A stretch of DNA of 64,000 nt from Clostridia bacterium. Lineage in GTDB: Bacteria; Bacillota; Clostridia; Oscillospirales; CAG-272. The stretch spans positions 15,740-79,739 of the forward strand of contig JAFYLH010000010.1 of the NCBI GenBank assembly GCA_017537175.1, written 5' to 3'. Below the pieces are notes generated by a model. The model did no database searches, was not told where the DNA came from, and was given only the letters and a program-made list of their open reading frames with translations. This document shows, in pieces, positions 34,598 through 38,957 of this stretch. The position numbers and the translations under genes were made by a program. Each line of letters starts with the position of its first letter. The first letter of the stretch is position 1.

Positions 34598-35641
34598 ATG
34601 ATCCGTTTTAACTGTGATTATCTTGAGGGCGCACATCCCCGCATCCTCGAGGCTCTTACAAAAACCAATCTTGAGCAGACCGTAGGATACGGCTGTGACG
34701 AATACTGCGATATGGCAAGGGATGCCGTAAAGAAGGTGTGTAATGATAACAGCATTGATGTTCACTTTCTTGTAGGCGGAACTCAGACCAATCTCACCGT
34801 TATATCCTCAGCGCTGCGGGCTCATCAGGGAGTTCTGTCTGCCGAGACAGGACATATCAACTGTCACGAAACAGGAGCAATAGAGGCTACAGGCCATAAG
34901 GTCATTGCGCTCCCCACCGAGAACGGTAAGATCAAGGCTTGTGATATCGATCATTATGTTGAGAGATACCGCGCGGATGAAGCCTGGGAGCATGTTGTTC
35001 AGCCCAAGATGGTGTATATCTCCAACCCCACCGAAACAGGAACTATATATTCTAAGGCAGAGCTTACAGAGATAAGTGAGTCCTGCCGCAGAAACGGGCT
35101 TTATCTCTTCCTTGACGGTGCAAGACTGGGCTACGGTCTTGCGTGTAAGCGCAACGATCTTGATATCCCTGCCATAACCGCTCTTACGGATGTGTTCTAT
35201 ATCGGCGGAACAAAGGTCGGACTTTTGTTCGGTGAATGTCTTGTTATAACAAATCCCGCGCTTAAAGAGGATTTCCGCTGTGTAATAAAGCAAAAGGGCG
35301 GAATGCTTGCAAAGGGCAGACTGCTGGGTGTTCAGTTCTACGAGATGTTCCGTGACGGTCTCTATTTTGAGATATCAGAGCATGCTATGAATATGGCAGA
35401 AAAGCTCAAGGCGGATATAACAGCTCTTGGCTATGAGTTTGACGGAGATTCCCCTACAAATCAGCAGTTTGTAAAGTTGACAGGTAAGCAGGTTGAGCTG
35501 TTAAGCGAGGATTTCAGCTTTGAAAACATGGGGCTTTTACCCGACGGCAGAGTGCTTGTGCGCTTCTGCACCTCCTGGGCGACCAAGGAAGAAAATATAG
35601 ATAAGTTGATTGAGAAATTAAAGGAAATCAGAGAGGTTTGA
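34598..35641 (+). CDS. Low-specificity threonine aldolase / beta-eliminating lyase family PLP enzyme
   Basis: N-terminus FNCDYLEGAHPRILEAL, FLVGGTQTN and YIGGTKVG (PLP Lys region). Confidence 0.75.
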   Translation: MIRFNCDYLEGAHPRILEALTKTNLEQTVGYGCDEYCDMARDAVKKVCNDNSIDVHFLVGGTQTNLTVISSALRAHQGVLSAETGHINCHETGAIEATGHKVIALPTENGKIKACDIDHYVERYRADEAWEHVVQPKMVYISNPTETGTIYSKAELTEISESCRRNGLYLFLDGARLGYGLACKRNDLDIPAITALTDVFYIGGTKVGLLFGECLVITNPALKEDFRCVIKQKGGMLAKGRLLGVQFYEMFRDGLYFEISEHAMNMAEKLKADITALGYEFDGDSPTNQQFVKLTGKQVELLSEDFSFENMGLLPDGRVLVRFCTSWATKEENIDKLIEKLKEIREV

Positions 35642-35657
35642 CCTCTCTGATTTTTTG

Positions 35658-36005
35658 TTATCTGCTTACGATAACTGCAACAATAGCTGCCGCAAACACC
35701 GCAAAGGCTATAGCGAATATAAATCCGATCGCCACGGCAACATCAACAAGAAATCCGCTCACAAGCCCCAGAGCCAGAGTGTTTACAAGCACCGAAACAC
35801 CCGACAGAAGCAACGGCAGTCTTGATGTGCAGCAGAAGCATCTGAGCAGAGCATAACCGATAAATATAATTGCCGACAGTATCAGCATAAACAATACTGC
35901 AGCAAAATAATTTCCCAGCAATCCAAAGCCCGCAAGTAAGCCGGCTGCAACCCCGCTTATAACAGCGGCGGCAATAATGAGTAAAATGGTACAGATCTTA
36001 TTCAT
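35658..36005 (-). CDS. Small hydrophobic membrane protein (4 TM), unknown function
   Basis: The start is moved to ATG 36005 (GGGAGGGAAG RBS). It is almost entirely hydrophobic, with a central CFCCTS motif. Confidence 0.6.
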   Translation of the reverse strand: MNKICTILLIIAAAVISGVAAGLLAGFGLLGNYFAAVLFMLILSAIIFIGYALLRCFCCTSRLPLLLSGVSVLVNTLALGLVSGFLVDVAVAIGFIFAIAFAVFAAAIVAVIVSR

Positions 36006-36069
36006 TTTCTTCCCTCCCTTCATTTTCATAATATGCTTTGAAAACACATAAGTGCCGAGGGATAAAAAC

Positions 36070-36146
36070 GAAAACCGCAGGTTTTCTCATAACATCAGGT
36101 AAAGCCGGATCTATAACGCTCGCCAAAGGCAATCATAACTCATAAC
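36070..36146 (-). repeat. Array of hairpin plus TCATAAC units (inverted partner of 36606-36714)
   Basis: The units are GAAAACC-gcag-GGTTTTC + TCATAAC (36087-36093), then ...CTATAAC (36111-36117), then GCC-aaa-GGC.. + TCATAAC TCATAAC (36133-36146). Spacings are 24, 22 and 7 nt. Confidence 0.8.
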
Positions 36147-36198
36147 TGAAAGAGGTAGCTTTAAATCGTATTTTATCTCAGGTTTAGAGCATAAAATC

Positions 36199-36227
36199 TT
36201 GACATTCAAAATACTGTATGTTATAAT
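36199..36227 (+). promoter_or_regulatory. Consensus promoter driving the tRNA-Gln locus
   Basis: TTGACA-17 nt-TATAAT (perfect consensus), 111 nt upstream of the mature tRNA 5' end. Confidence 0.75.
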
Positions 36228-36244
36228 ACTACGGTAATAAATTT

Positions 36245-36268
36245 GAATATTGGGATATGGTGTAACGG
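36245..36268 (+). repeat. Duplicated 5' fragment of tRNA-Gln (24-nt direct repeat of 36333-36356)
   Basis: GAATATTGGGATATGGTGTAACGG is identical at both positions. This upstream copy continues into unrelated hairpins GCGGTC-cac-GACCGC and GATAAC-cgaatgaa-GTTATC. Confidence 0.9.
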
Positions 36269-36338
36269 GCGGTCCACGACCGCAGGGATAACCGAATGAA
36301 GTTATCTTTGTTTAACAATTATTCCGCGAACCGAATAT

Positions 36339-36412
36339 TGGGATATGGTGTAACGGCAACACACAAGACTTTGACTCTTGCTTTGTAGGTTCGAGTCCTG
36401 CTATCCCAGCCA
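36339..36412 (+). tRNA. tRNA-Gln (anticodon UUG), CCA encoded
   Basis: Hand-folded cloverleaf. The acceptor is TGGGATA/TATCCCA and the D stem is GTGT/ACAC. The anticodon arm is CAAGA-CTTTGAC-TCTTG and the T arm is GTAGG-TTCGAGT-CCTGC, with discriminator G plus CCA. A consensus promoter lies roughly 110 nt upstream and a terminator follows directly. Confidence 0.9.
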
Positions 36413-36441
36413 ATAAAAAAGATGCTTCGGCATCTTTTTTT
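36413..36441 (+). terminator. Terminator directly after tRNA-Gln
   Basis: AAAAAAGATGC-ttcg-GCATCTTTTTTT. Confidence 0.85.
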
Positions 36442-36443
36442 AT

Positions 36444-36463
36444 TGGCAGCAGGGCTCGAACCT
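36444..36463 (-). repeat. Inverted fragment of the tRNA-Gln T-arm/acceptor 3' end
   Basis: The reverse complement, AGGTTCGAGCCCTGCTGCCA, aligns with tRNA 36387-36412 (AGGTTCGAGTCCTGCT...GCCA). Confidence 0.8.
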
Positions 36464-36559
36464 TGAGAAGGTCCGGGCGTTAAGAAAACAGTCCGGTGGA
36501 CTGTTTTTAGCACGGATGCGTGAGCCGTCAGGCGAGGGTGCGATACGCGAAGCGTATCT

Positions 36560-36575
36560 GTCCTGCTATCCCAGC
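36560..36575 (+). repeat. Duplicated 3' fragment of tRNA-Gln (16-nt direct repeat of 36395-36410)
   Basis: GTCCTGCTATCCCAGC is identical at both positions. This copy is followed by its own terminator-like hairpin. Confidence 0.9.
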
Positions 36576-36604
36576 AAAAAAAGCATCCTTCGGGATGCTT
36601 TTTC
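36574..36604. terminator. Second terminator-like hairpin after the duplicated tRNA 3' fragment
   Basis: AAAAAAAGCATCC-ttcg-GGATGCTTTTT. Confidence 0.7.
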
Positions 36605-36605
36605 A

Positions 36606-36714
36606 GTTATAAGTTATGAGCTTGCCGTTGGCAAGCGTTATGAGAAAACCTTTGGTTTTCGTTATGAAAAAGCCTACGGCTTTTGTTATGATATGGCTGT
36701 CGCCATAGTTGATA
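36606..36714 (+). repeat. Array of GTTATGA plus variable-hairpin units with a constant 24-nt period
   Basis: It begins GTTATAA, then has four GTTATGA units. The first two carry GCTTGC-cgttg-GCAAGC and GAAAACC-tttg-GGTTTTC. The last two carry AAAAGCC-tacg-GGCTTTT and TATGGC-tgtc-GCCATA. It ends GTTGATA. Heptamer starts are at 36613, 36637, 36661, 36685 and 36708. Confidence 0.9.
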
Positions 36715-36741
36715 ATAAAAAACCACACTCAGGAAGTGTGG
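36712..36741 (-). terminator. Terminator of the CHAP/SLH hydrolase gene (the hairpin spans its stop codon)
   Basis: CCACACT-tcctga-AGTGTGG on the minus strand, followed by TTTTTT. Confidence 0.7.
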
Positions 36742-38957
36742 TTCTTTATTATCACAGCCGCTTGGGCTCTTGTTGCGTAATTGCGGGGCAAAAGCTTACC
36801 GTCGCTTCCCGAAATGACCTTGGAATACACAGCCCACGCCATAGCCTCTCTTGCCCAGGAGGAGATGCTTTGATTATCCGAAAAGTCTACAAGCGACTTA
36901 TCGTTAAAGTTGCCATGTGTACCCTTATACTTTTCGTAATTATAAAGTATCACGCAAAGCTGCTCTCTGGTGATGGGTGCATTGGGAGAAAACTTGTCCT
37001 CTGATGTGCCGGATATTATCTTACTGTTATATGCCCATATAAGATATTCGTAATAATAATGAGAGGATGACACATCGCTAAAGGGCAGATCCCCTGTTAT
37101 TCCCGCAGCTCCGTGGAGTCTGCCCAGGAGCGTAACAAACTGCGCTCTTGTAACTGTGGCGTTGGGTGCAAAGTGAGTTGCATCCACACCTGTCATAATA
37201 TTATTGAGATAGCAATATTCTATGGCATCATAGTACCAGGCTTTGCTTATGACATCGCTGAAGGGATTGATCCACAATCCGCCGTTATAGGTAAACTCTG
37301 CCGTTACGGTATGCTTGCCTGTGTCAAGCTCAATAACATACTCGCTCAGATCTCCCGGGATACCTATAGGCTTATCGTCTATCGATATATAGGAGATACT
37401 GTTCTTACTGTCGGCAAGTATACGCACACCCAGAGTGTCATCTGACATATACTTCTGTATTCTTCCGCCCTCGCCCGGGATAAGAGTAAGATCCGGTGTC
37501 TCTTTTGACCATACCGCATACAGGGTAAGAGATGCGTTTTTGTTATATACATCTCCTGCAAAAACACTTGCCCACTTGACATTGCCGGAGTACGCCCAGC
37601 CCTCAAAGGTATATCCCTGTCTGACAGGAGCCTTGTCGGTAATTGTGATCGACATTCCCTCGGTAAACTTTTCTGCCGCAGGAGGATTTTCGCCGCCGTT
37701 GGCATTGTATGTAACGGTAAATACATCGCGGTCTCTTTCCCATACCGCATAAAGTGTAATATCCTTGTTGCCGTCATATACAGAGGTATACTCCGGCTCG
37801 CCGTTCTTTGTACTGCTCCAACCCACCAGCTTGTATCCGTCAAGGACGGGCACAGAGCCCTCAAGTGAAAGAGCTTTGCCGTGCTCCTTTGTAAGGGTGG
37901 CTGTAGCGGGAGTGCCGCCGTTGGCATCAAGAGTAACGGTATAGGTGTTTACCTTCCACTGTGCATAGAGAACTATAGACTTGTTCTCGGTATATCTGTC
38001 CCCTGCCTTGTATACCACCTCACCGTCGGCCGAGGTACTCCAGCCTGTAAAGGTATAGCCTGTGCGTGCAGGCTTTGAGGAGGTGATGACAAGATCTGCA
38101 TAGATGGATTTTATCTGAGTCTGGGGGGCGTTGCTGCCACCGTTGGTGTTGTATTTTACGGTATATCCCATAGTACAGTAGTCAAGGGATATCCAGCCGG
38201 TCTTGCCGTTATAAGCTATCTTGCCCCATATCTCGTTTGCTACCTCGGTAACCTCAACCTCACTTCCGTAGGCAAGCTGACCGAGAGAAGCAGAGGACTT
38301 GGTAGGCTCGGAACGGACATTTAATGAGGATGCGGTAGTTATATATACACCCGGCTCGCGCTTTGCGGATTCTCCGCTATAGTCGGGAACACCATAACCG
38401 AGAACATAGGCAATATCCTTTTTATAGGATACGGTCTGTACCTTCTTGGAGCTGTTACCCTCAATAACATGTATACGGGTATCGTCTACCATATACACTA
38501 TTCCCACATGGGTAGAGTCATAGCCGTTTCCGCTGTTGTATGCCGCACCGAAGTATACTATGTCTCCCCTCTTGGGCTCATATGTACCGCCGTAATAGGG
38601 AGCAAACTGAAACTTACCCCTGTTTATAAACCAGTTCATACCCTCGTCACAGCTTGCGTGCTTGGGTATAACGGTGGTGGGAATGCCCGCCTGATCTGCA
38701 CACCAGGACACGAACATAGCGCACCACGCGTGGTAGTTAAGTCCGTACCACTCACCGTACTTGGTACAGTCGTTACTGCCCTGTACAGTTCCCTCAAGAC
38801 TGCCCTCCATATAGCCCTCCTGAGTGAAGGCTACAGCTAAGATATCATCAACACCGTTTCCTGTATTGACATGGGTATTTTCAAAGGCGGCAAAGACCCC
38901 TAGGGGGAGCATTGCCAGTATAAGAAGTATAATTACTGTTTTTTTCATAATATTCAT
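36729..38957 (-). CDS. Secreted cell-wall hydrolase: CHAP amidase/peptidase, SH3b, Listeria-Bacteroides repeats and three SLH domains
   Basis: It has a signal peptide, the CHAP motif AWCAMFVSWCADQAG...HVGIVY and an SH3b segment (LNVRSEPTKSS...). GYTFTGW/GYKLVGW/GYTFEGW repeats follow. The C-terminal SLH repeats are FSDVISKAWYY... and FSDVSSSHYYY... Confidence 0.85.
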   Translation of the reverse strand: MNIMKKTVIILLILAMLPLGVFAAFENTHVNTGNGVDDILAVAFTQEGYMEGSLEGTVQGSNDCTKYGEWYGLNYHAWCAMFVSWCADQAGIPTTVIPKHASCDEGMNWFINRGKFQFAPYYGGTYEPKRGDIVYFGAAYNSGNGYDSTHVGIVYMVDDTRIHVIEGNSSKKVQTVSYKKDIAYVLGYGVPDYSGESAKREPGVYITTASSLNVRSEPTKSSASLGQLAYGSEVEVTEVANEIWGKIAYNGKTGWISLDYCTMGYTVKYNTNGGSNAPQTQIKSIYADLVITSSKPARTGYTFTGWSTSADGEVVYKAGDRYTENKSIVLYAQWKVNTYTVTLDANGGTPATATLTKEHGKALSLEGSVPVLDGYKLVGWSSTKNGEPEYTSVYDGNKDITLYAVWERDRDVFTVTYNANGGENPPAAEKFTEGMSITITDKAPVRQGYTFEGWAYSGNVKWASVFAGDVYNKNASLTLYAVWSKETPDLTLIPGEGGRIQKYMSDDTLGVRILADSKNSISYISIDDKPIGIPGDLSEYVIELDTGKHTVTAEFTYNGGLWINPFSDVISKAWYYDAIEYCYLNNIMTGVDATHFAPNATVTRAQFVTLLGRLHGAAGITGDLPFSDVSSSHYYYEYLIWAYNSKIISGTSEDKFSPNAPITREQLCVILYNYEKYKGTHGNFNDKSLVDFSDNQSISSWAREAMAWAVYSKVISGSDGKLLPRNYATRAQAAVIIKNHTS

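Follow-up and report, generated by a model that had tools for sequence, protein, structure and literature searches.

The 64-kb stretch of Clostridial DNA analysed here (the window) holds one tRNA-Gln(UUG) gene that is surrounded by copies of its own ends. The structured module behind this gene is a tRNA-linked repeat (TLR), a class that includes the RtT repeats of Escherichia coli, and is a Clostridial form of an element that is known but has yet to be explained. The locus is one of a large Clostridial family with the same design. We consider it probable that it consists of one ordinary tRNA-Gln(UUG) gene with two independent accretions, the TLR-type module downstream and a leader duplication upstream, the RNA being made via read-through and trimming. 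The window corresponds to C12:15740-79739 of genome G000 (2.3 Mb, 39 contigs), which comes from an uncultured gut bacterium of Oscillospiraceae/Acutalibacteraceae-like affiliation, and positions without a prefix count from its first letter; the prefixes G, C and L denote genomes, contigs and loci.

Copies of tRNA ends around one tRNA-Gln gene

ARAGORN reports a single tRNA in the window, tRNA-Gln(UUG) at 36339-36412 on the plus strand, and no other tRNA-Gln(UUG) gene turned up with the same program across the assembly. The gene scores 62.6 bits with the Rfam tRNA model and was the sole match in a permissive Rfam scan of 35000-38000. Around it, the 24-mer GAATATTGGGATATGGTGTAACGG, composed of six leader nucleotides and tRNA positions 1-18, occurs in two exact copies (36245-36268 and 36333-36356), as does the 16-mer GTCCTGCTATCCCAGC (36395-36410 and 36560-36575); the number expected in shuffled sequence is 0.00 for both. 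An inverted copy of the T-arm at 36448-36463 differs by one mismatch from the reverse complement of 36387-36402 (0.01 expected in shuffles) and makes up the outer stretch of a longer palindrome with the terminator T1 at its centre (36409-36447), six nucleotides (ATCCCA) being absent from the far arm. All three repeats are real and lie far beyond chance.

These results bear out much of the original prediction, made from the bare sequence, of an intact tRNA-Gln nested inside duplicated 5′ and 3′ fragments and accompanied by an inverted 3′ fragment. The small hairpins that it named are present both in the sequence and in the minimum-free-energy fold. The pairing that it proposed for a read-through transcript was reproduced in silico for 36235-36606, where the outer 5′ fragment pairs with the outer 3′ fragment and the inverted copy with the T-arm of the tRNA around the terminator. 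It was also right that the fragments are not the scars of ordinary one-ended integration. Simple tandem tRNA-Gln genes, which it had named as a possible trivial source of the fragments, were not found at this locus in relatives.

A module family with a tRNA-matched clamp and a covarying core

When the locus was compared with its own genome by BLAST, the hairpin at 36485-36510 was found at several other places. The modules share one order of parts and always lie on the strand of the tRNA, which is followed by a terminator, a short spacer, the reverse complement of the T-arm of that same tRNA and a conserved core. After the core, the T-stem 3′ strand, acceptor 3′ strand, discriminator and CCA of that tRNA are repeated in direct orientation, and a terminator comes last. 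Modules of the window's genome follow tRNA-Gln(UUG), Gln(CUG), Glu(UUC), Glu(CUC), Tyr, Pro(CGG) and Pro(GGG), with two tandem units behind Glu(CUC) and Tyr, and two further copies, on C18 and C13, have tmRNA-type ends. Those of relatives stand behind tRNA-Arg(ACG), His, Lys(UUU), Ser(GCU, GGA, UGA), Ala(GGC), Thr(CGU), Leu(UAG, GAG) and tmRNA, with two or three tandem units at some loci. The core occurs behind at least 15 kinds of tRNA, plus tmRNA.

A covariance model, R1 (94 positions, 23 pairs), was built from ten cores behind five tRNA types. It also recovers the other modules of the window's genome and, under strict filters, has matches in 26 of 151 genomes, belonging to 21 of the 97 genera, of an Oscillospiraceae-like family. 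A tRNA or tmRNA gene lies upstream on the same strand for 35 of 46 R1 matches, and its end is 38-58 nt from the first unit and 230-385 nt from the second tandem unit. The family helices are P2 (ACYYT-GAG-ARRGT), a 5-bp P3, the 10-bp hairpin P3a with a GGT or GGG loop, and P4. Among 54 distinct sequences, 90.3% of cells hold standard pairs (69.3% in shuffles), 173 cells are changed on both sides (44 in shuffles) and slid-register controls pair in 34-42% of cells; the alignment was fitted to R1 and thus favours structure, although most pairs still show three to five pair types.

In about 30 modules the segment in front of the core is complementary to the cognate T-arm along 10-15 nt, and the non-palindromic T-loops of tRNA-His and tRNA-Lys prove that it is antisense. 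It forms one strand of a closing helix, P1, whose other strand is the downstream 3′ fragment. Thirty of 34 modules examined for this helix have the 3′ fragment; P1 measures 6-11 bp in 29 of them and 5 bp in the remaining one, and its pairing leaves the acceptor 3′ strand and NCCA free. At tRNA-Gln(UUG), where the module starts 32-36 nt 3′ of the tRNA on the plus strand, the direct copy covers the T-loop end, T-stem 3′ strand, acceptor 3′ strand, discriminator and first C of CCA; 36560-36567 supply the 3′ strand of P1 and the remainder is a free tRNA-like 3′ tail. Taken alone, this module folds to -60.6 kcal/mol (z = -4.3), with the core helices and P1 in place. Clustering of open reading frames (ORFs) over 42 module loci gave same-locus synteny only and no recurrent neighbour that would qualify as a linked protein.

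Such a clamp is at odds with the idea, put forward in the original prediction, that the outer fragments are a second tRNA-Gln whose interior has been replaced. The 3′ pieces belong to a recurrent module that stands behind many tRNAs without any 5′ copy; the inverted copy closes the conserved core by pairing with the direct copy further downstream, as in the Rfam consensus of RtT; and the 5′ copy is an independent, young leader duplication. Because the antisense segment pairs with the 3′ fragment across modules, both 3′ fragments are strands of a single clamp and not relics of a second tRNA. A split, permuted or intron-containing second tRNA was likewise rejected, since ARAGORN and Rfam give one tRNA and nothing but positions 1-18 and about 59-74 is contained in the outer pieces.

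The two tmRNA-type modules of the window's genome, at G000:C18:86470-86640 (+) and G000:C13:63200-63400 (-), have clamps that match the tmRNA 3′ end (CCTCGCCTCCACCA). The former lies about 2.4 kb downstream of ssrA (C18:83747-84099) and the latter is an orphan; a similar orphan in G004 (L034) comes after an ORF that looks recombinase-like by eye. The two modules of the window's genome may be end marks of islands integrated into ssrA.

Correspondence with the tRNA-linked repeats of E. coli

By definition, TLRs share 18-19 identical bp with the 3′ end of an upstream tRNA or rRNA gene; E. coli has 22 of them at ten loci, their function is not known, and an early claim of a stringent-response role for rtT was retracted (Stenum et al. 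2021, PMC8144298). The window module lies directly downstream of its tRNA gene on the same strand. It repeats the 3′ end of this gene over 16 exact nucleotides, with 17 of 18 positions matching (GTCCTGCTATCCCAGC followed by AA in the copy and by CA in the tRNA), and other family members show at least 18 nt of 3′-end identity, CCA included. With its single unit, the tRNA-Gln(UUG) locus falls within the range of one to five tandem units per locus seen for TLRs.

In E. coli K-12 the tyrT-tyrV locus repeats the last 19 nt of tRNA-Tyr six times in sense orientation and includes, besides, four degenerate copies of the T-arm in antisense and four Rfam RtT units (RF00391; 133-137 bits). The closing helix of the RF00391 consensus joins an anti-T segment to a 3′ fragment and leaves the tail CACCACCA free, and the window module has the same arrangement, its anti-T pairing with the direct 3′ copy (36448-36455 with 36560-36567) and its acceptor tail being free. 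When R1 was run unfiltered over the 3 kb of tyrT-tyrV, its four best matches coincided with the four RtT units, each in the right orientation, at only 7-10 bits and E-values of 0.02-0.13. The reverse search was negative in the window, where RF00391 had no match at E ≤ 10 between 35000 and 38000. Its best match in the same genome, 15.8 bits, lies inside the tRNA-Gln(CUG) module and falls well short of the 45-bit gathering cut-off; in 14 other genomes RF00391 gave weak matches only, which lie in coding DNA and are noise. The architecture is shared with RtT, and sequence homology is unproven.

Three TLRs of E. coli, RrA, RrB and RrF, sit between the dual terminators of rrnA, rrnB and rrnD; they arise by read-through of T1, which is 87% efficient, have a 3′ end that maps 3 nt past the repeat, and bind Hfq and CsrA in vitro (PMC8144298). 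Read from the sequence, the layout of rrnB is 5S, T1, RrB, 18-bp repeat and T2. An inverted copy was looked for in rrnB RrB and not found. By eye, a motif CGRAGGGYG in front of the last hairpin is common to the Clostridial cores (36533-36540 in the window), RtT (CCCGAAGGGCGA) and RrB (CCCGGAGGGTGG).

Turnover at orthologous loci

The locus was compared among seven congeners with the same tRNA-Gln. Syntenic G002 is free of the module: the tRNA is followed by one terminator, which equals T2 of the window, and then by the flank. Only a degenerate anti-T remnant follows the terminator in syntenic G007. G006 carries a unit with a different core ("type B") inside the same clamp (GCAGGAC...GTCCTGCTATCCCAGCCA), and G004 has the same unit followed by the truncated start of a type A core, the type found in the window. 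T1 travels with the module and is orthologous to T1 of the tRNA-Gln modules in G006 and G004; T2, the match of the G002 terminator, is the ancestral terminator of the tRNA-Gln gene.

A second locus shows the same pattern. The core behind tRNA-Arg(ACG) in G006 and G009 shares 94% identity with the core of the window, and the tRNA-Arg(ACG) locus of the window's own genome is an empty site whose terminator equals T2 of the filled G006 locus. From these two loci it follows that the variable part consists of the proximal copy, T1 and the core. Either an insertion or a precise deletion between the direct repeats would produce this pattern. No excision joints were seen in gut metagenome contigs. Within such contigs the core hairpin reaches about 1000x summed depth, compared with about 22x for the flanks, and the motif must therefore be hugely repeated across the community.

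Next to the empty tRNA-Arg(ACG) site (G000:C27:1-330 (-)) lies a purine/pyrimidine-rich, ladder-like repeat, followed by a small ORF (MNSPLLDKSLDFATQIVLFYEEF...). This ORF may resemble the four-helix "23S rRNA intervening-sequence protein" family. A strain variant of the tRNA-Gln locus in gut metagenome run X4 keeps both the leader unit and the downstream module; it has about 10 substitutions in the leader spacer 36300-36333, an unchanged leader hairpin part, and a 9-nt deletion in anti-T/P2 (36458-36466).

The upstream leader duplication

The upstream element, an 88-bp leader duplication (36245-36332), copies the tRNA as far as G18G19 of the D-loop and breaks there. None of the seven congeners with this tRNA-Gln has it, so it is very young; we conclude that it arose in the leader as a recent accretion, independent of the module. 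Copies of its first hairpin (GCGGTCCACGACCGCAGGGA) are dispersed in other genera, six of them in G132 and three in G197. Together with the AGGGA(A/T)AA that follows (36269-36291), this hairpin is 96-100% identical to intergenic copies in those two genomes, none of them next to a tRNA, and the copies of G132 are partly spaced about 95 nt apart.

Only tRNA-Gln(UUG) and tRNA-Ser(CGA) of the window's genome have an upstream copy of their 5′ end, and both repeats span -6 to +18. Larger leader units occur in at least ten genomes, upstream of tRNA-Ser(CGA, UGA), Pro(CGG, UGG) and Trp, in runs of 1-3 (for example G000:C6:8241-8441 (+) and L079-L089). They begin with a leader copy and tRNA positions 1-18/19, broken exactly after the GG of the D-loop, and continue with a structured insert of about 113 nt ("type C"), the D-stem 3′ strand, a stub that replaces the anticodon arm, and the real tRNA. 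The type C insert has covarying helices, such as GTAAC/GTTAC alternating with GCGGT/ACCGC, and by eye shares a GAGCGC...CAGCGAGG motif with the 3′ modules; its core had no match in Rfam. The possibility that the leader unit of the window is a decayed type C copy was examined by alignment and rejected (z = 2.6, 0.2 and 0.4, not significant).

At G000:C23:96040-96380 (+), downstream of a consensus promoter, a pseudo-copy that resembles tRNA-Pro(UGG) carries the type C insert in its D-loop and lies about 200 nt upstream of the real tRNA-Pro(UGG). It runs through an anticodon-like TTTGGGA loop, and its tail motif GACCACAGTTTGTCCCACTTCT recurs in G004 (L028).

Promoter, terminators and surroundings

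The features of the tRNA-Gln unit are collected in Table 1. Its promoter is a perfect consensus sited just 5′ of the first 5′ tRNA copy, and the syntenic promoter is kept in G007. A hairpin like P5 is also present in a module remnant of G004 (L028).

Table 1 Features of the tRNA-Gln(UUG) unit in the window
Feature	Position	Strand	Basis
Sigma-70-type promoter of the tRNA-Gln unit: TTGACA, 17 nt, TATAAT, extended TG	36199-36227	+	scan, 12/12
5′ copy: 6 leader nt and tRNA 1-18 (acceptor 5′ strand, D-stem 5′ strand, D-loop to G18G19)	36245-36268	+	exact repeat of 36333-36356
Leader-unit body, 64 nt, with two hairpins and an A+T-rich spacer	36269-36332	+	sequence; absent from congeners
Leader hairpin GCGGTC-CAC-GACCGC	36269-36283	+	sequence
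Leader hairpin GATAAC..GTTATC	36287-36306	+	sequence
tRNA-Gln(UUG), intact, CCA encoded	36339-36412	+	ARAGORN; Rfam tRNA, 62.6 bits
Terminator T1: AGATGC-TTCG-GCATCT stem and U-tract; centre of palindrome 36409-36447	36413-36443	+	sequence, inverted repeat
Inverted cognate T-arm copy (anti-T)	36448-36463	+	1 mismatch to reverse complement of 36387-36402
P1 closing helix, 5′ strand, AGCAGGGC	36448-36455	+	pairs with 36560-36567 in fold
Conserved structured core, type A	36451-36541	+	covariance model R1, 95.7 bits
Core helix P2	36460-36472	+	R1 core
Core helix P3	36472-36478 with 36510-36516	+	R1 core
Core hairpin P3a, loop GGT	36485-36507	+	R1 core
Core helix P4	36524-36533	+	R1 core
Core motif CGAGGGTG	36533-36540	+	R1 core
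Variable hairpin P5, GATACGC-GAA-GCGTATC	36542-36558	+	sequence and fold
Direct copy of the last 16 nt of the tRNA before terminal CA	36560-36575	+	exact repeat
Terminator T2: GCATCC-TTCG-GGATGC stem and U-tract	36576-36604	+	matches sole tRNA-Gln terminator at syntenic, module-free G002 locus

Minus-strand genes flank the unit on both sides, one of them a small unannotated ORF and the other encoding an SLH/CHAP/SH3 wall protein, and the gap between them measures 680 nt. The unit is bracketed by mutually inverted arrays of the heptamers TCATAAC and GTTATGA (36067-36160 and 36598-36715), with private hairpins interleaved; the arrays are 90-93% complementary and 443-543 nt apart, and arrays of a similar kind flank the same locus in G002 and G007. 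Elsewhere in the assembly, ARAGORN calls a 102-nt "tRNA-Pro(tgg)" at G000:C30:42571-42672 (-), which reads like coding sequence and is probably a false positive.

Origin and possible roles of the module

According to the explanation that we favour, the consensus promoter would drive heavy transcription, and a minority of polymerases would pass T1 and stop at T2. The trailer RNA would then fold and be trimmed at its tRNA-like end by the machinery that matures tRNA 3′ ends. The product would be a stable, structured RNA some 130 nt long, rising and falling with transcription of the tRNA operon. We infer read-through of T1, termination at T2 and trimming by analogy with the E. coli TLRs, RrB in particular. 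Recombination between the direct tRNA-end repeats, and between modules, could account for spread and turnover and give rise to tandem arrays, empty sites and core swaps.

Several observations weigh against this explanation. Both the transcription of the module and its strand are presumed. T1 looks strong (a perfect stem, a UUCG loop and 7 U), so read-through may be low, and the module has no promoter of its own. Counts of G.U against A.C pairs pick no strand, being 17 and 14 in the core, with summed P1 helix lengths of 193 and 197, so the module may be used as single-stranded DNA. Among the RNA runs searched, the 36-nt hairpin appeared in only one doubtful run, from another organism, and four metatranscriptomes covered only the tRNA at a tRNA-Glu module locus. 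Homology with RtT is unproven: RF00391 misses the window module, its promising match inside a module of the same genome did not generalise to 14 other genomes, and its weak matches in relatives are noise in coding DNA. As for the leader unit, its 64-nt body is not significantly similar to the larger units, with which it is filed on the strength of the shared break point only.

The strength of T1, the missing promoter and the missing strand signal make a serious rival of a repeat that acts at the level of DNA, selfish or structural and without an RNA role, whose hairpins would work in single-stranded or cruciform DNA, which would copy itself between tRNA loci and whose direct repeats would allow precise loss. 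The modules lie between two bidirectional-looking terminators without a conserved promoter, and neither wobble test favours a strand. Presence and absence at syntenic loci would suit such a repeat, as would cores swapped from one tRNA to another, tandem runs of 1-3 units whose right ends vary, and the massive repetition of the core hairpin across gut metagenomes. The motif GCGAAGC, a very stable DNA mini-hairpin, also recurs in modules. The orientation, however, is always that of the upstream tRNA, for which co-transcription is the simplest account, and the modules have neither a recombinase nor any other protein gene linked to them. The TLRs of E. coli, moreover, are transcribed and processed (PMC8144298). 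On balance we regard a purely DNA-level role as unlikely, though it deserves to be taken seriously. A bolder proposal, which strikes us as quite unlikely, is that TLR-type modules are self-retargeting structured elements: a lineage-specific core would move between tRNA and tmRNA genes, and each new host gene would supply the clamp afresh through an inverted and a direct copy. The 5′ sister class would break at the D-loop GG and the 3′ class at the T-loop, the two loops of the elbow, and where both are present, as at this tRNA-Gln gene, the leader and trailer RNAs could form a two-piece tRNA-like particle. The 94%-identical core behind tRNA-Gln and tRNA-Arg with different clamps, the empty and filled sites and the shared break points are compatible with this proposal and do not require it.

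Other readings start from the pairing of single fragments. The inverted copy might act in cis as an antisense of the tRNA's own T-arm, sequestering or marking the precursor around T1 (for RNase III, for example) and so tuning tRNA output. The palindrome 36387-36463 has T1 at its tip and forms in the fold of the whole transcript, and the spacing from tRNA to module is tightly kept. This reading leaves the conserved core, the direct 3′ copy and the tandem units unexplained; folding of the tRNA and termination at T1 precede synthesis of the antisense segment, and the isolated module uses the same segment for P1, all of which makes cis regulation very unlikely. We find it highly improbable that the outer 5′ and 3′ fragments pair, within a read-through transcript or as released RNAs, into an acceptor stem of 7-8 bp stacked on P1, a two-piece tRNA-like domain for RNase P or other tRNA enzymes. 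Positions 36251-36258 do pair with 36568-36575 in the minimum-free-energy and centroid folds of 36235-36606, the 5′ copy includes six leader nucleotides like a substrate of RNase P, and leader units and a 3′ module stand together at one other locus at least, tRNA-Ser(CGA) of G013. This pairing is nevertheless automatic for two pieces copied from one tRNA, and the fold prediction also unfolds the real tRNA and is thus no guide to the cell; most modules lack a 5′ partner, most leader units lack a 3′ partner, and the 5′ copy, absent from every congener, is very young. The chance that the direct 3′ copy is an attR-type remnant of an integrase-borne island with a lost interior appears minimal. tRNA and tmRNA genes are classic integrase targets, and at two loci an intact tRNA 3′ end and a foreign terminator lie beside the insert while the displaced original 3′ end and the ancestral terminator are distal; the tmRNA-type module L034 of G004, besides, adjoins the ORF that by eye looks recombinase-like. 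The supposed island, however, measures 165 bp and has no genes (149 non-coding nucleotides separate the direct repeats), and no integrase is linked to the modules. The same covarying core stands behind at least 15 tRNAs, each time with a matching inverted copy, which independent deletions cannot yield, and the conserved covarying core largely refutes the idea of an integration scar.

Comparison with known systems

E. coli tRNA-linked repeats behind tRNA genes have reportedly been on record since 1978, through the work of Egan and Landy and, in 1999, of Rudd. They are usually regarded as an enterobacterial curiosity and have stayed unexplained for more than 40 years in the stable-RNA operons of E. 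coli. No paper on a Clostridial family of such modules was found in the literature, and the skipping-rope and other tRNA-mimic families that we considered are different RNAs. The covariation, tRNA-matched clamps, arrays, empty and filled sites and core swaps of the Clostridial modules indicate that the design is widespread and under selection. With its concrete helices and break points, the family opens the TLR design to comparative study, and the leader units broken at G18G19 may be an undescribed 5′ counterpart of TLRs. For annotation, the modules account for many of the "tRNA fragments" and "double terminators" near tRNA genes in gut metagenome-assembled genomes.

With att duplications and CIME-type elements, the modules have in common that direct repeats of a tRNA 3′ end flank an insert, that the gene is rebuilt with insert-borne sequence and that precise loss is possible. 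They differ in that the insert is non-coding and about 150 bp long, contains an extra inverted copy of the target and a covarying fold, and has no linked integrase. The 178-bp RtT repeats of tyrT-tyrV come closer, with a degenerate inverted T-arm, internal hairpins, a CGRAGGGYG-like motif, a last hairpin and a tRNA 3′ end in the same order. By eye, however, the stretch from the tRNA to RtT shows no intrinsic terminator, unlike that of the window module, and the tpr ORF of the RtT locus has no counterpart at the tRNA-Gln module.

Like the TLRs of E. coli in general, the Clostridial modules lie directly 3′ of a stable-RNA gene in the same orientation, occur as one to several tandem units whose ends repeat the last 16-19 nt of the upstream gene, and have no linked protein; the order of gene, T1, TLR, repeat and T2 is the dual-terminator layout of rrnB. 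Unlike them, they belong to gut Clostridia and thus to another phylum, have a different conserved core and place an intrinsic terminator between gene and unit at tRNA loci too. The repeat in the window is 16 exact nucleotides long and lacks the full CCA. Within a single bacterial family the modules serve at least 15 tRNA species as well as tmRNA, and this Clostridial family, in contrast to the TLRs of E. coli, also has a counterpart on the 5′ side of tRNA genes.

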